Of a DNA stretch of 64,000 bases, positions 950-60,297 are shown one piece after another. The stretch spans positions 2,108,001 to 2,172,000 of the forward strand of contig NC_079240.1 of the NCBI RefSeq assembly GCF_027921745.1, given 5' to 3'. How positions within the stretch are numbered: position 1 is the first letter of the stretch; each line of letters begins with the position of its first letter. The notes under the pieces are model-generated. The model saw nothing but the letters and a program-made list of their open reading frames with translations, was not told the origin of the DNA and did no database searches. The stretch is from Schizosaccharomyces osmophilus. Taxonomy: Eukaryota. The translations under genes and the position numbers were made by a program.

Positions 950-1609
950 ATGTATGCCTCTAGGTCTTCTTTACGAAGCTCGATTGATAATCTTGACTGG
1001 ATCGACCTTGCAGATGCCATGGAAAGTACCTTTGGGTCTCCAGTACCTTCGCCGAATACAGAAGCTCCGCCACAAGAAAAGTACAAAGAAAGAAGCGAAA
1101 GACAGAGCTCATTTTCATCCACATCTGGACACGAAATACAGCCCCCAACAACCAATTCTAATTCCACTTCAAAGTCCATTCTGGCCTGGATCCATTTTTT
1201 CGTAACGGGCGGGATTTTCACTTTGATGATTGTCAGCTTTGCTGATATTTACCACATGTTTCGATTCAAAGAAAAGCTTTTCATACGTTATATGACGTCC
1301 GGGCGACTTGAGTTTTTTTCTTGCGGCATTGTTTTACTTGGCTTGTATATAGCAATTCTTTGTAAGCGAGTTCTATTTTTATACAAGATGCATTTACTAA
1401 CGAATATCTCTTTATATAGGGGGTCTATTGGTTTCTTACGTCGAAATACTGGAAGCAGAAGAGCTAAGTCGAAATCGACTTCTCTATAAAACACACAGAT
1501 GTAAGAGATTTCACGTGAGCATGATTGAATTATAGAAACTAATTGTTCTTGAATAGATTTCTTGCAAACTTATTGTGGACTACGACCGTATATGACTTTG
1601 GCTCGATAA
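950..1609 (+). CDS. Three-exon orphan membrane protein (~181 aa, about 2 TM segments)
   Basis: Exons 950-1361, 1420-1500, 1557-1609. Introns GTAAGC..TACTAAC..TAG and GTAAGA..ACTAAT..TAG splice in frame to TAA at 1607-1609. S/P-rich N-terminus followed by hydrophobic segments. Confidence 0.7.
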
Positions 1610-3192: not shown

Positions 3193-3822
3193 TTAGGTAT
3201 CGCTAGTCGTAGAAATGATATTATGGATGGCTTCAACGAGAATTTTATGTTCCACACCGTGAATCTTGTCTTCTAGGGTTTCAACGGTGTCTGAAGATTC
3301 TATAGGAATTTCCTGAATCAAAATGGGTTTTCCTCCATCTACCTCCGTAACGACCCAGTGTACCATAGCCCCTGTTTTTGTTATTTTTCCTTGTTGGGCA
3401 GCTTCGAAAGCTCGCTCAATCGCATGGATCCCGTTAAAGGCACCAGGAAGAGCAGGATGAAGATTTATGATTCCAATGTTTCGTCTTTCTAATGGGCCTA
3501 GAACCTCGGGAGACAAAATGTGCATCCAACCTGCACAGACAACCAATGAAGGCTTCAAAGCGATAATTCTCTCTGCCAAATCCGTGTCGTACTTATTCCG
3601 ACCAAGATCATTCCCGTATTCTTTTTTATAAGGAAGTAAAGGATGCACTGACGTTGGAATTCCGACTTTTGATGCCCGTTCTAGTCCATACGCATTTTTG
3701 CGATTAGACAGCACATGACTGACAATAGCTTCTCCTTTTAAAATTCCATTTTGTGTAGCATCAATTATTGACTGAAGATTCGATCCTGAACCAGAAATTA
3801 ATACAACTAAGGATGCAACCAT
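3193..3822 (-). CDS. ade5: Phosphoribosylglycinamide (GAR) formyltransferase
   Basis: VLISGSGSNLQ and INLHPALP motifs; start taken at MVASLVV (3822). Confidence 0.96.
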   Translation of the reverse strand: MVASLVVLISGSGSNLQSIIDATQNGILKGEAIVSHVLSNRKNAYGLERASKVGIPTSVHPLLPYKKEYGNDLGRNKYDTDLAERIIALKPSLVVCAGWMHILSPEVLGPLERRNIGIINLHPALPGAFNGIHAIERAFEAAQQGKITKTGAMVHWVVTEVDGGKPILIQEIPIESSDTVETLEDKIHGVEHKILVEAIHNIISTTSDT

Positions 3823-11199: not shown

Positions 11200-13692
11200 C
11201 TAACTTAAAAGATCCGAAGGTAATTTGCCATAGTCAATTTGATCTAGAATTCCAGCTTCGCCTTCTCTAGTTACGGATATCCGCAACCTCAACTTGACCT
11301 GGGTATCTTTAGGTCCTTGAATTCGCATAGTCTGAGAAGTTTCCATCCCAGGATCCATACTTGTCGATCGAAGAGGTTGAAGTCGTAGTTTTTGAGATTT
11401 TGGGACTGCTATTTCAAGATGCACTTTTTCAACTCTTGATACTATGCTTTTATTCTTGAACCTTGCTTCTATGATAGCAGTTTTTGTAGCTTCGTCTCTT
11501 GAAGGATACAACGACAATGTAACATCGTGCTTATCATATACAAGGAGAGGTTCGTATTGCTTACTTTGAGGAGGAGTAGAGGCTGTCTGCGAATGATTAG
11601 AGCCACTCATGTCCAACGAGGCAAAGCTGTTGGCTAAAGTGTTAGCTGCCGGTTCTGCTGCAGGTGCAGGCGTGCTAAATAGCCCTAAAATATCATCAAC
11701 TTGACTCTTTTTCGGTACCGAAGTTATATTTGCAAGATCGTAAGCTGCAGTGGTATTAGCAGATGGAGTTTCATTGATAAGGGTTTCTGCCTGAGAAGCA
11801 CCTCCTAAACCAATAAGGTCTAAGAGGTCGTTAGTTTCTTCAGTTTCTTTCACCGGTTTTTTAGATGCGTTCAGTTTTTGTTCAGCGTTTTGGTAAGGAG
11901 TAATTCGTGCTGGCGGAGAAGGTGCGGGTATGGATTGCATCACAGTTCTGTCTAAGGAAGGATCTTCAATAACATGTTGGTACTCAACTGAGCGCTGTTG
12001 GACTTCAGTGTTTCTATGCTTGCCATAAAACTCGATTAGCCTTTGTATTTTGGATAATGAAGAAGAAGACTGAAAACGAGTGCTAAGTTTAATCAAAGTA
12101 TTTAGCCCATACTGAATGACAGTAGCTTGCGTGAAGTTGGTCCCTATCAATACCTCCTCAACTAGGTCCAAAATATCGTCTTCAGATATGCTTTTTGGCA
12201 AAGTATCATCGTCAAAATTCATGGAAGGAGATAATAAATATTGACCATACTCACCAATGACCCACAAGGAGGCCATGATTAAGGCCTCTTGGGAAATGTC
12301 ATCTTTCAATGCAGCATAAAGTTTGAAAATAGCGTACTCGTGGAGGTCTGGAGCACTAGCAATCAATCGAAGAAATGTTGATAAAGCAGTCTCGGATAGG
12401 AAATTACCTGCACTTTTAAATACACGTAAAAGTGTATCAAAATGCCATCTTTTGTTTGGGGCAAAAGCATTTGTAACCTCGGTGATATACTGGGCAGTTC
12501 TTGAGCGCATATCATCTGATACGGTATCTAAATACGTTAAAAGTTCACGAACCATAAATCGGACGTTGGTTTCATTCACAAGGAAAGTAGAAAGTTCTAA
12601 AGCGCGAGCTTGAATAGAGATGTCAACGTCGTAAAGGCACGAAAGAATAGTAGAACGATGACGTTGAACAGCGTTTTCCTCTGTATTTACGACACGCTTC
12701 AACATATTGAGCGCGACGTACCGGGTGTTGTTATCACGATTTCCTAAAAATTTTGCGAGAATGTTAACGCCCAAAACACGAAGGCTGCTATCCGAATCGA
12801 CATCTAAGATGGTGCGGACTGCTTGATAGAGGATTGCATTTCCAGCGTTTCGGGAAGAGTCTGTGTTACTGCAAACTTGAGCCAATATATCACTGATGCG
12901 ATCATTGACGGAAGCATCGTGTTGTGCGAATACGGATAATATTTGGAGTATTTTTATTTGCAAAAAGGGGTCAGAAACATTGCCGATATTGAGTTCAGAT
13001 GAATAGGTATTGGAAGAAAGTTGACGGAGACGGTGAATGAGGCCATCAGTATGCTCAGCAAAACGGGGAATGAGATCGGGATGGATTCTACATAATCCCA
13101 TCACAAGTGAAATATCGGACATTAGTACACCGTGACTTTTGGAATGAAGAAGCTTTTCAGCATCCAAAAGATACAGTTCAGCCAACTCTGGTTCCTTTTG
13201 TACCACACGTAAAGCACACAGAAGGGCTTTCTTGCTGACATAATTATGTGAACTGGCACAAAGCTTGGAGATAATGTTTGAAAGATCACGAGCCAATTCA
13301 GGACTGGCGATGTTGCCAAAAGCCGACAATGCAAGACTAACGATGAATTTGTTGGGTGATTGTAAATCTTGTTGAAGGGAATTCGTAAGCAAGGTTAAAA
13401 CTTCTTGATTTTCGTCTAGCAATAGCATAGCACCCAAGTATCCTAATCGTTTGTCCATAAACTGGGCACTTGAAAGCAATTTTAAGCATTCGATTTGTCC
13501 AAAATGAGTCGGTTCTCCTAACAAATACAAATACAATAACTTTGCAACATTTCTCCTCCGCATTCGCGTATCCGCTGATCCTTGGCGAATGTTTTTACGT
13601 ATCTGTGCCGATTCTTTACGAATTGCACTGTTTTCTTCCGCCGTCGTCTTCGACGCGCGCACGGCTTTAATAAACGTCTTCAAACTTGACAT
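11200..13692 (-). CDS. apl4: AP-1 adaptor complex gamma subunit
   Basis: MSSLKTFIKAVRA..HFGQIECLKLL adaptin trunk, hinge and C-terminal ear (AVPKSQKLRLQP). Confidence 0.96.
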   Translation of the reverse strand: MSSLKTFIKAVRASKTTAEENSAIRKESAQIRKNIRQGSADTRMRRRNVAKLLYLYLLGEPTHFGQIECLKLLSSAQFMDKRLGYLGAMLLLDENQEVLTLLTNSLQQDLQSPNKFIVSLALSAFGNIASPELARDLSNIISKLCASSHNYVSKKALLCALRVVQKEPELAELYLLDAEKLLHSKSHGVLMSDISLVMGLCRIHPDLIPRFAEHTDGLIHRLRQLSSNTYSSELNIGNVSDPFLQIKILQILSVFAQHDASVNDRISDILAQVCSNTDSSRNAGNAILYQAVRTILDVDSDSSLRVLGVNILAKFLGNRDNNTRYVALNMLKRVVNTEENAVQRHRSTILSCLYDVDISIQARALELSTFLVNETNVRFMVRELLTYLDTVSDDMRSRTAQYITEVTNAFAPNKRWHFDTLLRVFKSAGNFLSETALSTFLRLIASAPDLHEYAIFKLYAALKDDISQEALIMASLWVIGEYGQYLLSPSMNFDDDTLPKSISEDDILDLVEEVLIGTNFTQATVIQYGLNTLIKLSTRFQSSSSLSKIQRLIEFYGKHRNTEVQQRSVEYQHVIEDPSLDRTVMQSIPAPSPPARITPYQNAEQKLNASKKPVKETEETNDLLDLIGLGGASQAETLINETPSANTTAAYDLANITSVPKKSQVDDILGLFSTPAPAAEPAANTLANSFASLDMSGSNHSQTASTPPQSKQYEPLLVYDKHDVTLSLYPSRDEATKTAIIEARFKNKSIVSRVEKVHLEIAVPKSQKLRLQPLRSTSMDPGMETSQTMRIQGPKDTQVKLRLRISVTREGEAGILDQIDYGKLPSDLLS

Positions 13693-14121
13693 TTTTCAAG
13701 CCCAAATCAATTCTATGAAATTCCTCAAAGATCACAACTCCCCAATGTTTTGGCAAACGACAGGTTTCGTTCTGTCGCGTTTGTTGATTCGAAGAATTCC
13801 AAAATAACGCACTACGTTGGAGTATTTATATAGTGTAGTAGTTACCAGTAGGTCAATTCGTGTTGTATACTGATAGAATACTATTATGAAATTTACTGTA
13901 TGTTACCGCAGAATAATAGACAGAGAGTCGATGTAAACAAACCATTGATTGAGTAGTAAATTCATCAATTGTGAAACAAAGAGCACCTGAATTTCACATT
14001 GATCTTAAATCCTATTCACAAGATCAATGATCGAATAGGTCGTGGCATCGGACGTTATAATGTATGAGCAATTAAAGAGAGGGATGCAGAATATAAGGAT
14101 TTAGTTTACTACGACTACTTT

Positions 14122-14231
14122 GTCTACAAAAATGTCGATGCGAAAACATGGTGGTTCCCGTCTAATGCAGCAGAGGAGAATAGTTAGTAGAACGGTTGAA
14201 AAAGACATGAAATTCCGGGGTGATGCAGGCC
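14122..14231 (+). pseudogene. Degenerate 5S rRNA gene copy
   Basis: Ordered blocks GTCTAC, GCGAAAACA, GTTCCCGTC, TGCAG, GTTAGTA, GGTTG, ACATG, TCCGGGGTG, TGCAGGC match recalled fission-yeast 5S rRNA, with many substitutions and an internal deletion. Confidence 0.8.
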
Positions 14232-14381
14232 TATTTCTGCGTTGGCTTTTCAAAAGAAAACTTATAAGCTGATCGCTTCTTACTTTTGATGATGGACCTG
14301 CCTATGGTTTGTTAAATATAGTAAAGAAAGGGCTGTCATTAACGAAATAAAGTTCAATGAAGAACACAGGAGTAGCATATA

Positions 14382-14402
14382 ATATATATATATATATATA
14401 TA
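14382..14402. repeat. (AT)n microsatellite
   Basis: About 10 AT units, seen directly. Confidence 0.9.
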
Positions 14403-14624
14403 ACGAAAGGCAATCACAATATGCTCTACTGATTTGGCTCGATGTTTCCATCTTGATAGTTCAGTGATCAAAACTATTACGCACAGCCGTGCTGGGATTA
14501 GTGTATCTATGTATGTAAAAAGGAAGAACTTGAATACTTTTGATTTCAATATGCTATACATCCGTTTCACGACTTGTAAATATATGCTTGCGTGTGTGTG
14601 CGTAATTGTATACGAATTTTATGT

Positions 14625-15251
14625 TCATTGGAATCCAGAAAAACAAAACGTTATATCATACGGGGAAATTAAACCAACTGCATCACGAAGCCGTTCTTTC
14701 AATCGAATGGTTTCATTGTAGTTGTAAGGAATTTCGTATCCATCAAGATATCGAGTGCATTGGTCTCTAGTCAAGCGATCTATATCTTCAACCGAGGTAA
14801 TGCCAGGCAAATCATCATCAGGTTGGTCACCATGTAAAAATGGAATAATATTGGCTGAACATCCCATGGATCTTCGCTGAATGTTTTGTGATCTTGAAAA
14901 ATTCATCTCCAATCGGTCAAATTTCATTTCCAATCTGTCAAGTCTTCCCTCTAGTCTATCAACTTTTGCCGTCATAGCATTTGGGTCGTTCAACCAACTT
15001 TGAAACCAATGTGGAGGTTGGTTTGGAGCTTGTTCTTCTCTTTCATTCAATTGTCTTGCAAAATTGCAAATCCTATGAAATTTCTCAAGTTCATTTCGTT
15101 TATATTCAGGAGTCTGTATTTCCATTCGTCCATCTTTGTTTTCCATTTCAATTGCAAAAGCCCCCAAAAATCTATTTACTTCTGCAGAGTTTTCTTGTGC
15201 TGGTGGCGGAATGTTATAATCATTTGCAAACAATTCTGCTATTTCTTCCAT
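14625..15251 (-). CDS. Mug2/Mug135/Meu2 (DUF1773) family protein, Tdk1-like candidate meiotic driver, 208 aa
   Basis: Intronless. PPHWFQSW motif, short heptad stalk (DRLE x3), C-terminal NIQRRSMG..IPFLHG..LPGITSVEDIDRLTRDQC..YLDGY..LKERLRDAVGL typical of DUF1773. Confidence 0.88.
   Translation of the reverse strand: MEEIAELFANDYNIPPPAQENSAEVNRFLGAFAIEMENKDGRMEIQTPEYKRNELEKFHRICNFARQLNEREEQAPNQPPHWFQSWLNDPNAMTAKVDRLEGRLDRLEMKFDRLEMNFSRSQNIQRRSMGCSANIIPFLHGDQPDDDLPGITSVEDIDRLTRDQCTRYLDGYEIPYNYNETIRLKERLRDAVGLISPYDITFCFSGFQ
14908..14970 (-). repeat. Three degenerate 21-bp coding repeats (coiled-coil stalk)
   Basis: Encodes AKVDRLE/GRLDRLE/MKFDRLE. Confidence 0.75.
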
Positions 15252-17186
15252 TTTAAAGAATTTCAGTTGAATGAACTGCTACCGTAAGCATCCTCTTGTA
15301 GTTGGTTGGAAGTAGACAGATGACGATGGAACTGGTGTTTGTTTGGATTCGAGTAGTATTATATATTTTTTTTGTTTGTAGCTTTAAATCGTCGAGGCAA
15401 AATAATCGGTAATGTATAATATTATTGTAAGTTGGAATCCAATTATGAATGGCCTCACTTGTTAATACAGTAGAATGAAGTTAGTTAGAAAATATCTTCA
15501 GTAACGTCTCTGGTTATACTGGTAAAGATGTAGTTGAACATGTTGGTTAGTTCATCTGGCAAACTCTTGAGATAGGAATAGTTCGTTTTGGGGACAACTC
15601 GCACTTTGGTAGTGATTTCAAACTAACAAGGAAACAAGCAATATGCCTAAAGAGACCAAGGCAAAATTACATCTTTACGACTAATTTTTTAGGTTGATCC
15701 ATTTTTCAACGTAAGATTTTTTTTTTGTTTTCTTGTTTAAATTCTTTAGCAAGCTAACTTTGGAAATCATGACCGCCATTCATTGTCATCCATACTTCAT
15801 GTTATCGACCTAATTTCATTTTCGATTCGTAAACAAACAGCCTAAATAGAACCTAGAATTCGATCCATAGTAAATAAATTATTCTAATTCTTTCGAATTA
15901 TGTAAGTGAATAATTCGGAGTGTAAACAAATCAGAAAAAGTCAATTCTGAATAGAAGGATTTCTTTGCAACCCTTCACATTTATCCTTGGTTAACTCAGT
16001 GCATCCATTCGTATCTGACATTTCGGAATCATAGACGAACCAATGCTTTCAGCTGAACAGTCGACCTTGGACAAAATATTTCAAAGCACTTTGATAAGAG
16101 CTTGTACATATAGGCAATAAAGAAACTGCTGTTGATGATGGACAATTAAAAACGTATGGAACAACTAAGTCATCGTCAGGAAAGTGAGCTGTACAGACCT
16201 TTTCTGGGAAGCTACGAAAAAAGGCAAGAAAAGATGTTCTTTCTTTAAAAGGAATCCAATTGACGTGTTTGTTTCAACGATGCTGTTTCTAGAGGAAGCA
16301 CTTTTTCATCCACGATATTCCAAGCAGTAGGATAATTGCATACAGGAGAGTCACCTGAATCTAATTGTTTACTTTTTTGAAACGTTTCATGTCGCGTAAC
16401 AGAGTTCAGCAATCGTGTTTCTTTCACAGACGAGCTCGTAACCGACACGAATACCAAATAGAAAATAGAAAAAATAAAATAACTTAGATACTCATTTCGA
16501 ATCAAAATAAAACCATTCAGTCCAATTGGAAGGAAAATAACAAAAAACATGTTGCTCTACCAGAAAGAAACGCATCGCTTACGCAATTAAAAGTCACAAA
16601 GTAACAAATCCTTGATTTCAGTTTGTTTATTTACAAACAAGAAAAGAAGGCCTTTTCTAAAAAATAAGAAAAAAATTATATTTTCCATGAGAGACGCTTT
16701 GGACAAGTATAATAAATATGTCAGTTTTTTTAAAATGGATGTTTCTCCCTCTTGAGCTGTTATTCCATATTGAACAAAAATTCCTCAAAGTGTATAGTGC
16801 GATGAGCAGAAATATGTTTGAAGCTTCCTTGGACTAAAATTAGCCTGTAATGAAATACAAAATACATCATCGTATACTTTCCTTGTCATATTTCATTTCA
16901 CTAGACAAAGCAAGATCCTTCATCATTTTGCATTTCCCTCGCTCAAGGGTTCTTTTTCTACCTAATGAATGGTTCATAGCGCTAGTTGGTAAGATACAGC
17001 TTACTTTGCCAACAGCAGATGCCATTTTAGTTCCGTATGCATCCCTTCAAAAAAACTTTCCTTTTTCGAGAAGGGAAAGATTAGTCAAAGAATTTACCAT
17101 CAAACTGTTCTTCTTATTAAACCAGTTAACAACAAATTTCTTATATGGTATACATATAATTGTGATCAACATTCTCGACAGATCAA

Positions 17187-17258
17187 GCTCTTGTAGCTCA
17201 GTGGTAGAGCGCTTGCCTAGTAAGCAAGAGGCCCAGTGTTCGAGTCACTGCTGGAGCA
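17187..17258 (+). tRNA. tRNA-Thr(AGT)
   Basis: Cloverleaf; CTTGC-CT-AGT-AA-GCAAG anticodon arm; GTTCGA T-loop; T-run terminator. Confidence 0.97.
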
Positions 17259-17595
17259 ATCATTTTTATGAATTAATTCCAACCTTTCTTTTGATGAAGG
17301 TCATATCTATTCAGTTTTTTGTCTATTCTTTTTAAAAGGCTTGATTTCTCTTCCCTACAAACGCTTCCTGGACCAAATTGACTGAACCCTGCGATTCAGG
17401 TTTCCAGCTCGATGCTTGGTTCTCTCACTCAGTCTGCACAGACGCTGGAGGCGATCGGTTAAGATACATCTTAAAATGGAGCTAACTAACTAACTTTGTC
17501 TTTTAAAATGTAATTGACAACTCGACGTCTCAATGAACAGAATTACTCGGCTAACGAATTTCAAATGTAATAATAAACAAATCAATCTCCAACTT

Positions 17596-17613
17596 TTAGT
17601 AAGCGTGACGTCA
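17596..17613 (+). promoter_or_regulatory. Adjacent Pap1-type (TTAGTAA) and CRE/Atf1 (TGACGTCA) sites upstream of gpx1
   Basis: Exact motifs at 17596-17602 and 17606-17613, about 100 bp before ATG of an oxidative-stress gene. Confidence 0.65.
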
Positions 17614-17707
17614 CCGACAAAAAACCTTCAAATAGACTAGCTTCCGCAAATACCAACTTGACTTCTACCATACCTAAAGGAACGAAAGAAGCTTAGAAAT
17701 AACCGAA

Positions 17708-18289
17708 ATGGTCTCTCACTTTTACGATTTTGCACCTCTTGATAGAACTGGTAAGCCCTTTCCTTTTAGTGAATTGAAGGGAAAGGTTGTCTTGATTGTC
17801 AACACTGCTAGCAAATGTGGCTTTACTCCCCAATTCCAGGGCTTGGAGACATTGTACCAGAAATACAAGGAGCGTGGCTTGATGATCGTTGGTTTCCCTT
17901 GCAACCAATTTGGTGGCCAAGAACCTGGTAACAACGAAGGTATGGAATGAACTCGTTTGGTTGCAGTTGGAGTTTGTATCTTTGAACTGTAGCCAAAATG
18001 TTCGATAAAAAGTATACACAAGCTAACGAGTATAATAACAGAAGTTGCTGACTTTTGCCAAAAGAACTATGGTGTTACATTCCCCGTTTTGTCAAAGATT
18101 AACGTCAATGGTGACAACGTTGACCCCGTTTTTCAATATTTGAAGAGGGAAAAGAAGCAACTTGGTCTTGAAAGAATCAAGTGGAACTTTGAAAAATTCC
18201 TTGTTAACCGCCAAGGTCAGGTCATCGAACGCTACTCTAGTATCAGCAAGCCTGAGCATATCGAAAACGATGTTGAAAGTATCCTTTAG
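17708..18289 (+). CDS. gpx1: Glutathione peroxidase
   Basis: [24 protein letters not shown] motifs; intron 17940-18041. Confidence 0.96.
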
Positions 18290-42412: not shown

Positions 42413-43996
42413 ATGACGGCTATACGGACAAGAATAACGGTTTCTGGAAGAGAAAAGAAGGCATTACGGGCTTTTTATTATAATCAAAGAAAAAAACCTA
42501 CACAGATTGAAGTTGCCGATTGGTTCAAAAGTGAATTTGGAAAACCAATTGCTCAGTCAACATTATCGAGAATTCTTTCAGACAGGTTTGCATACTTGGA
42601 CGATACCGATCAAAATCTGCATGCAAAAAGGAATCGCTCACCAAAATTCCCTGCACTCGAGAAGGCACTGTATAACTGGATTCAGGATTCTCATCTAACA
42701 AGGACGAAAGCCACGAATGATATACTGAAAGCAGCGGCGACGAAGCTATGGGGCGCCATTCCCGAATATAGAGAATCCTCTATGCCTGAATTTAGTAATG
42801 GCTGGGTTGAAGGCTTTCGAAGACGATACCTGGAGCGCGCGGACGAGCCTTCTGGGGGGGAATATTATATCGATGTTGAACAGCTTGGCGACAGCATGGT
42901 GCGTATTCAAGATGTTGCAAGCTTTTTTCCAAAAGAAAACATATTCAACGTGGATGAAACTGGGCTATTTTGGAAATTATTACCGAACCAAACCCCTTCT
43001 ATCGAAAACTGTGGGTATGCAAAGCGTTATAAAGCTAAGATAAGCATTGTAATGTGCGCAAATGCAACCGGAAGTGAGAAGCTCCCCTTATGGGTTGTCG
43101 GATATGCGAAACAACCAAGAGCTTTTCATTCGACCGGTACTTATCCTGAAAATATTGGTATACATTGGCGCTGTTCTGGGAAAGCGTCTATGACACTCAC
43201 CATTATGGAGGAATGGCTCCGTTGGTTTGATTCGAAGATGGAAGGACGAAAGGTATTGTTGGTTCTCGATAATTCCGATGTACACCGGCTTGCGGTTGAA
43301 AGCATTCGTTGTTCTAGTCATTCATTCCAAAACACCACAATAGTCTTTCTTCCTTCCAATTCGACGAATGTCTACCAGCCATTTGAATTGGGCGTTTTTA
43401 ACGCATTTAAGGTTTTGTATAGACTGCAATGGACTCGATACTGGAAAGCGCACCTGTCAAATGGACTATCACCACAAAGCAAGATAAACATTGTTTCCGC
43501 CACGAAATGGATTTCCTCTTCATGGAACATTTTATTGTCCGAAACTGTCATTGACCATGCTTTTCGCCGGTCGGGAGTGTTGAGTATAGCCGATGAGAAT
43601 GAAGCTGCTTCACAGGTCCCTTTCATGTCAAACGAAATAAAAGAAATCGTTGATTTGATTCAAACAGTTTTGGGAAAAACAGAATTCAAGCTGGAAAATT
43701 ATTTGAACCCTTTCGAAGAAAGTTTAGAAGAGAACACGAAAAATTTACAGGATAACGAGATAGCCGCAGAATTTATGAACGATAAGGAATTTGAAACAGA
43801 TGAAGAAGAACAAAGTCTTTCTCTTATTCCTCACGAAAAGGCACTCCAAGCTATTCAGTTGCTTCTATATTTTGAGGTTCAACGATCAAATAAAGATGAT
43901 ACGAAATATCCTCAGATTGAAAAGCATCTATCGATAATCCAAAGTCGGCTACAGAGAAAACAGACTAGCCTAATAAGGCAACAAGAAAATTCTTAA
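42413..43996 (+). CDS. CENP-B/Cbp1(Abp1)-family protein derived from a pogo-like transposase, 527 aa
   Basis: Bipartite HTH (QSTLSRIL; KFPALEKALYNW; FSNGWVEGF) and DDE-type domain (FNVDETGLFW, CANATGSEK, LVLDN, QPFE); intronless. Confidence 0.92.
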   Translation: MTAIRTRITVSGREKKALRAFYYNQRKKPTQIEVADWFKSEFGKPIAQSTLSRILSDRFAYLDDTDQNLHAKRNRSPKFPALEKALYNWIQDSHLTRTKATNDILKAAATKLWGAIPEYRESSMPEFSNGWVEGFRRRYLERADEPSGGEYYIDVEQLGDSMVRIQDVASFFPKENIFNVDETGLFWKLLPNQTPSIENCGYAKRYKAKISIVMCANATGSEKLPLWVVGYAKQPRAFHSTGTYPENIGIHWRCSGKASMTLTIMEEWLRWFDSKMEGRKVLLVLDNSDVHRLAVESIRCSSHSFQNTTIVFLPSNSTNVYQPFELGVFNAFKVLYRLQWTRYWKAHLSNGLSPQSKINIVSATKWISSSWNILLSETVIDHAFRRSGVLSIADENEAASQVPFMSNEIKEIVDLIQTVLGKTEFKLENYLNPFEESLEENTKNLQDNEIAAEFMNDKEFETDEEEQSLSLIPHEKALQAIQLLLYFEVQRSNKDDTKYPQIEKHLSIIQSRLQRKQTSLIRQQENS

Positions 43997-59887: not shown

Positions 59888-60015
59888 ATCTTTGTGCACG
59901 GGTATTACGCTTATCAGTGAGGAGCTTTTCCTAGATGGCGTTATTGCTAGTTGAAAACTATAACCCTGACCGCTCCAACTCGTCGTGAGACGTTTTGGGA
60001 ATATTTGGAAACCAA
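59888..60015 (+). ncRNA. snu4: U4 spliceosomal snRNA
   Basis: ATCTTTGTGCACGGGTATTACGC..TGAGG..TTGCTAGTTGAAAAC matches recalled S. pombe U4 (U6-pairing stems); 3' Sm-like AATATTTGG. Confidence 0.93.
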
Positions 60016-60297
60016 TTCTTTGCTATAATTCATATGTCCAAGATGTGTGATTTTCGCAGTTGTTGGTTCGTGCTTATTGTCTTGATTTTGTAATGTATAC
60101 TGTGCTTGCGTGTTGTGAGTGGTGAATTAAGTCTTTGTTATTCGTATTATCAATTGAACATTGTAGTAACTCGTAAACTCTTAGCTGCTAACAATATTCG
60201 TTTGTTTTCTAAAATTATGGGGATTCATTGACTTGTAGAATTGAAGTAAGAGATAGAAATTTACCGATTTCAGTCCAGGAATAGTTCATTAAATAAA

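Follow-up and report, generated by a model that had tools for sequence, protein, structure and literature searches.

The window analysed here, a stretch of 64,000 nucleotides (64 kb) of Schizosaccharomyces osmophilus DNA, contains an open reading frame related to the driver gene tdk1 of S. pombe. It raises the question of whether this gene is a killer meiotic driver or has lost the capacity to kill. An earlier note on this DNA had described an intact, intronless ORF of 208 aa in an accessory island and proposed an uncharacterised spore killer or a suppressor of related drivers. The frame is indeed unbroken, with 627 nt and 208 codons plus a stop on the minus strand (see the table). That it is intronless rests on this continuous frame and on a 627-bp entry in the curated table of PMC12930445. 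An in-frame stop seven codons 5′ of the ATG rules out a longer N-terminus. No variant letters were observed over the ORF among the contigs of one sample.

Features of the tdk314 locus and its surroundings (positions are those of the 64-kb window)
Feature	Position	Strand	Basis
tdk-family ORF, 208 aa, matching tdk314/SOMG_04991	14625..15251	-	ORF, Pfam and Tdk1 matches; published table coordinates
PF08593/DUF1773/IPR013902 C-terminal domain, residues 122-194	14670..14888	-	Pfam; fold match to 9ja5/9ja6
Stalk helix, residues 81-128	14868..15011	-	AF2 model, heptads; break at Asp89-Pro90
21-nt (heptad) direct repeat in stalk, 3 in-register copies	14891..14962	.	Period 21, score 67
PPHWF hinge, residues 79-83	15003..15017	-	Aligns with PPAWF (Tdk1) and PPLWY (Tdk210)
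Z-shaped-domain-like N-terminal segment, residues 11-41, IPPP..E.S..E..RFL	15129..15221	-	Tdk1 alignment; AF2 model
Three FLEX cores (GTAAAYA) in a 100-bp stretch, a full GTAAACAAACA being the first; candidate Mei4 sites	15829..15928	+	578-671 bp 5′ of the ATG
Two more FLEX cores, including GTAAATAAACA at 16624-16634; may belong to the divergent tRNA/gpx1 side instead	16366..16634	-	Motif scan
apl4 (AP-1 gamma adaptin), conserved flank and synteny anchor	11200..13692	-	Pfam; homologues
tRNA-Thr(AGT); genes for glutathione peroxidase and Gemin7 come next	17187..17258	+	tRNA/Rfam and Pfam searches

Supplementary Data 1 of the preprint PMC12930445 lists 93 tdk loci, exactly one of which, tdk314 (SOMG_04991), has a length of 627 bp. 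It is entered as an intact S. osmophilus gene on the minus strand of chr3 at 2122625-2123251, and subtracting the window coordinates of our ORF from these gives 2,108,000 at both ends. Gene order points the same way. In S. cryophilus, apl4 (EPY51135) lies on one contig with EPY51068, a protein of 234 aa that agrees in sequence with Tdk210. The two are 67 accession numbers apart, which fits the published spacings of 134 kb between tdk210 and tdk211* and 137 kb between tdk314 and tdk315* (PMC12930445) and supports the identification. The ORF is thus almost certainly tdk314, on the basis of length, strand, coordinates and synteny rather than a letter-by-letter match. It is an already known gene, named and tested in print (PMC12930445), and the description as uncharacterised does not hold. 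A full-text search found tdk314 named in that work alone, and the S. osmophilus tdk meiotic-drive literature since 2024 added one resource paper; a drive test in the native host turned up in neither search. In the PMC11551393 supplement, neither the gene id nor two peptide words gave a match.

The protein is a member of the tdk/Mug135 (DUF1773) family, with the C-terminal domain, a Z-like segment, the PP motif, a stalk and an intact frame. The Pfam/HMM search for DUF1773 suggested by the earlier note yielded PF08593 (Mug135_C) with E=3.7e-19 and a score of 69.2 bits, the cut-off being 23.8. Additionally, the Tdk1 constructs 9ja6 (E=7.4e-27) and 9ja5 were the best two of four sequence matches among solved structures, and the former also covered residues 4-54 and the PPxWF stretch. 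The N-terminal segment aligned without gaps to Tdk1 residues 15-45, with 10 of 31 positions identical and both IPPP and RFL kept. The heptads of the stalk (L/F-D-R-L-E) extend across residues 93-127 and are partly coded by the 21-nt direct repeat. From the PP motif to the conserved Asn123 the stalk measures 44 aa, compared with 69 in Tdk210 and 33-98 in three non-driving relatives.

An AlphaFold2 (AF2) model built from an 11-row alignment (pLDDT 81.6, pTM 0.48) shows an extended N-terminal segment, a helix at 22-41 and a second helix, the PPHWF loop, a long helix and a small C-terminal head. The hinge sits in the loop between helices 48-74 and 81-88. Only two of the 76 Foldseek matches to this model had E<0.001, and both were Tdk1; in VIA-align, 9ja5/9ja6 reached Z 17 over 133 residues (rmsd 5.4-5.7), while the next chain reached Z 5.3. 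Tdk1 is thus the top match in both sequence and fold, as the family assignment in the earlier note would have it, and the N-terminal domain, PPxWF motif, heptad stalk and DUF1773-type C-terminus listed there were each confirmed in the sequence and the model. We discarded as chance an Rfam match to MIR4240 within the ORF, which scored 23 bits where the gathering score is 200, as well as those of the 62 matches of the HMMER protein search that were coiled-coil only.

Whether the gene kills has been addressed in print. Among 21 homologues expressed in S. pombe, drive was observed for tdk210 and tdk203 only, the other 19 giving none; all nine intact S. osmophilus tdk genes were without drive in this assay (PMC12930445). 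With tdk314 expressed from the tdk1 promoter, 82 spores from 24 tetrads (96 spores) were viable, 42 of them carriers and 40 noncarriers (PMC12930445), a ratio with a binomial P=0.91. The ectopic assay in S. pombe proposed in the earlier note was therefore already published, with the Mendelian transmission which that note had itself named as speaking against a killer, but in a foreign host.

We favour, at a probability of about 70%, the reading that tdk314 is a non-killing relic of a selfish gene which likely kept its self-assembly scaffold. In vegetative cells Tdk1 is a harmless tetramer, held in that form by its N-terminal region. In spores it converts to nuclear assemblies that bind Bdf1, grip chromatin and block chromosome segregation in the first mitosis after germination, and Tdk1 newly made in germinating carrier spores dissolves these toxic assemblies (PMC11551426, PMC11551393). 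Tdk210 and Tdk203 kill by the same route independently of Bdf1; protection requires homotypic binding, and family members about 27% identical do not cross-protect (PMC12930445). The resistant non-killers tdk1-HT3 and tdk315ra are intermediate in decay (PMC12930445, PMC11551393), and tdk315ra lost the toxin and kept the antidote before it decayed (PMC12930445). With the Z-like segment, hinge, stalk and head present, tdk314 would still oligomerise with itself. Like tdk1-HT3 and tdk315ra, it could act as an antidote to no killer allele but its own ancestral one, and the surface by which the stalk recruits a host factor would no longer work. If that surface is dead, heterozygous crosses would segregate 1:1, and the gene may be heading to the pseudogene fate of its syntenic partners. 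The state we propose, an intact scaffold without killing, is that of the two resistant non-killers, whose protective effect was shown by crosses.

That tdk314 is instead a weak or host-restricted killer driver seems rather unlikely to us. Spelled out in detail, such a driver would involve meiotic induction through FLEX sites and Mei4, toxic nuclear assemblies formed via an S. osmophilus factor other than Bdf1, and rescue of carriers by protein made at germination. The intact frame and the whole tdk architecture speak for such a driver. So does the closeness of its DUF1773 domain to that of the active driver Tdk203, with 48 of 72 positions identical when counted by eye in Supplementary Fig. 3f of PMC12930445. 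The outcome of the cross speaks against it: the 42:40 ratio arose under a meiotically induced promoter on which tdk210 and tdk203 drove. On the tdk1 promoter both of these killed noncarriers and tdk314 did not, with 40 of 48 noncarriers surviving for tdk314 compared with 38 of 84 for tdk203 (P=2e-5) and 2 of 48 for tdk210. Nevertheless, the marginal driver tdk11, at 80.8%, falls within the 95% interval of noncarrier viability for tdk314, 70-93%, so this single negative assay is compatible with drive at the tdk11 level. Spore viability in the tdk314 cross was also slightly low, at 85% compared with 97% for the empty vector (109/112; Fisher P=0.002), although the vector cross used a different partner strain. 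It was the second-lowest value among 17 of the 19 non-driving crosses. The deaths were even by genotype, with six carriers and eight noncarriers.

The choice of host bears on the same question. Across its seven supplementary files, PMC12930445 has tdk314 in a single S. pombe strain and a single cross of 96 spores, expressed from the tdk1 promoter, and its authors caution that heterologous assays may miss species-specific drive. S. cryophilus and S. osmophilus, however, are equally distant from S. pombe, and the S. cryophilus drivers were nonetheless active in that host; self-killing variants of these drivers act even in S. cerevisiae (PMC12930445). This indicates broad conservation of the host factors. 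Under P.adh1, two closer relatives of tdk203 were inactive (PMC12930445), which also weighs against a driver. The narrower proposal of a minimal killer with a 44-residue stalk, induced by Mei4, independent of Bdf1 and needing an S. osmophilus host factor or native expression, is doubtful too, if anything more so. Were it true, tdk314 would rank as the first active tdk driver from S. osmophilus, and the S. pombe screen would under-count live drivers. Drive in a native cross would add a third host species for the tdk family and a caution on heterologous screens, and would provide a short scaffold for finding the Bdf1-independent host target.

Comparison with the known tdk proteins is consistent with a non-killing relic. 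The nearest named relatives found, by local identity, are tdk201 (SPOG_05058, 49%) and tdk205 (SPOG_03626, 44%) of S. cryophilus and an S. octosporus protein of 303 aa (43%), which we took as tdk606 by its length; tdk201, tdk205 and tdk606 are non-drivers in the same S. pombe assay (PMC12930445). Their DUF1773 domains share 46-49 of 72 residues with tdk314, compared with 38 of 72 for the active Tdk210 and 33 of 72 for Tdk1. They differ from tdk314 in lying at other loci and in their stalks of 33-98 aa. In a tree of 12 rows picked from the HMMER matches, with long-branch and fragment rows left out, tdk314 joined these three proteins with a support of 77/89 that is not firm. The phylogeny suggested in the earlier note thus groups the gene with tdk homologues but gives no firm placement, and a position beside Tdk1 and Tdk210 stayed compatible with the data (p-AU 0.064). 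A separate cluster of ENA/Logan/JGI records (P0013, 213-220 aa) represents full-architecture Tdk homologues 37% identical to tdk314, carrying a Z-like segment, an MPLWF hinge and DUF1773.

S. pombe Tdk1 (Mug135, SPCC330.04c) resembles tdk314 in its Z-like N-terminus, PP hinge, coiled-coil stalk, PF08593 head and upstream FLEX motif. It differs in length (357 versus 208 aa) and in the long repeat stalk, which tdk314 does not have, and overall identity is 23.0% (PMC12930445). The Bdf1-binding region is not kept in tdk314, nor does tdk314 drive where Tdk1 drives. When Asn269 is aligned with Asn123, Tdk1 residues 233-255 correspond without gaps to tdk314 residues 87-109, with 4 of 23 identical and I235, V236 and R255 replaced by D89, P90 and M109, respectively. 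Judged from this alignment, tdk314 would not use Bdf1. The loss of the site is not diagnostic of a non-killer, because the active Tdk210 keeps just 3 of the 23 residues. Tdk203 and Tdk210 of S. cryophilus, which are active and independent of Bdf1, share the architecture of tdk314.

A further feature in favour of a live driver lies upstream of the gene, where FLEX sites, the binding motif of Mei4 targets that is conserved in S. osmophilus (motif definition in PMC9562144), occur 578-1383 bp from the ATG, the full 11-mer being the nearest. The 1.9 kb upstream hold five FLEX cores compared with 0.87 expected, a number reached in 3 of 2000 shuffles. Two are extended GTAAAYAAACA sites, which appeared in none of the 2000 shuffles and are the only ones in the 64-kb window (0.14 expected). 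One other 2-kb tile of the 32 (28001-30000) has four FLEX/forkhead cores, near a 40S ribosomal protein gene named from its translation. Other forkhead factors bind the same FLEX core, and the interval that bears the sites also serves divergent genes. Read as motifs, the cluster suggests meiotic induction of tdk314. The promoters of tdk203 and tdk210 have no Mei4 sites, in contrast to the region upstream of tdk314, and Mei4 control was found dispensable for drive (PMC12930445), which lessens the weight of the cluster for a killer. Neither a Ste11 TR-box in the gap nor the T[TC]AAAC DSR core on the sense strand gave a match.

The surroundings of the gene are those of a lone intergenic ORF rather than of an island. 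It is the only gene in the 3.5-kb gap that separates apl4 from tRNA-Thr(AGT), about 220 kb from the contig end and with conserved genes on both sides (identity to S. octosporus and S. cryophilus is 93% and 89% for Apl4 and 95% and 90% for Css1). Pfam gave no match for any of 54 stop-to-stop fragments of at least 30 aa in the gap, and Rfam found no 5S rRNA there. A tblastn search with tdk homologues found no second tdk piece in the 64-kb window: 119 of 121 hits fell on the tdk314 ORF and two weak ones (E 0.002-0.004) within other genes. The accessory island was thus overstated. Nothing of an island with wtf, wag, 5S rDNA or extra tdk pieces was found in the gap, wag and LTRs having had no dedicated search.

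A stretch of 39 bp at 15502-15540, 250 bp 5′ of the tdk314 ATG, recurs, apart from two differences, on a further contig of the sample mentioned above. It gave no Pfam or Rfam match and may be what is left of a repeat or of a duplicated segment. Two S. pombe synteny blocks, one with apl4-cwf18-nsa2 and the other with gpx1-gem7-css1, seem to meet in the interval with tdk314 (13692-17708). Orthogroup numbers around the tdk211*/tdk314/tdk411* set jump from 3326-3329 to 2825-2828.

The history of the locus appears to be one of decay. The genes tdk211*, tdk314 and tdk411* form one syntenic set that is absent from S. lindneri and S. octosporus; the partners tdk211* and tdk411* are pseudogenes, so that the locus is broken in S. 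cryophilus and in a second S. osmophilus lineage (PMC12930445). In the family as a whole, 49 of the 93 loci are pseudogenes (PMC12930445). That the tdk314 frame is intact although both syntenic partners broke is a point against a relic. We give hardly any credence to the idea that the host has taken the gene over for a meiotic or sporulation function unrelated to drive: the FLEX sites and the position among conserved genes far from the contig end would suit such a role, and they are set against breakage in two lineages, absence from two sister species and the high share of pseudogenes in the family. As a non-killing relic, tdk314 would exemplify an intact-but-silent stage in driver decay, with its orthologues broken or deleted. 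Its present significance is small, as the family, the mechanism and the gene are in print and the sole test was negative. Outside the window, a 113-aa S. osmophilus protein (P0035) groups with Tdk210 (support 96/91-98/89); it is likely a truncated product of tdk315*, still annotated as 'cell surface glycoprotein'.

The retained frame might also reflect selection for protection alone. Under this explanation tdk314 would be an antidote-only suppressor, a harmless oligomer that dissolves the toxin of a related active driver in the same genome or population. There is precedent, since Tdk11 binds Tdk210 (51% identical) and protects against it (PMC12930445), and tdk315ra and tdk1-HT3 resist without killing (PMC12930445, PMC11551393). 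We nevertheless consider it very unlikely. None of the nine intact S. osmophilus tdk genes drove, and there is no cross-protection at about 27% identity (PMC12930445). Two assemblies of one sample held no second copy of at least 80% nucleotide identity over the ORF, and the closest named relative among those found, 45-49% identical, belongs to another species. Additionally, tdk314 appears in no resistance cross across the seven supplementary files of PMC12930445.

Some further features of the window are unrelated to tdk314. We observed a tRNA-Arg(ACG) at 30221-30293, a longer and probably intron-containing tRNA at 25370-25478 that ARAGORN missed, and a U4 snRNA at 59888-60023, all on the plus strand. 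An ORF of 179 aa at 950-1489 (plus strand), hydrophobic in its C-terminal half, gave no Pfam match and no exact match in the protein collection searched; it probably represents a single exon of a membrane-protein gene that is spliced. Finally, positions 42413-43996 of the plus strand encode a CENP-B-like protein of 527 aa with HTH_ABP1_N, HTH_Tnp_Tc5 and DDE_1 domains, which is likely the domesticated pogo transposase of the Abp1/Cbh family.
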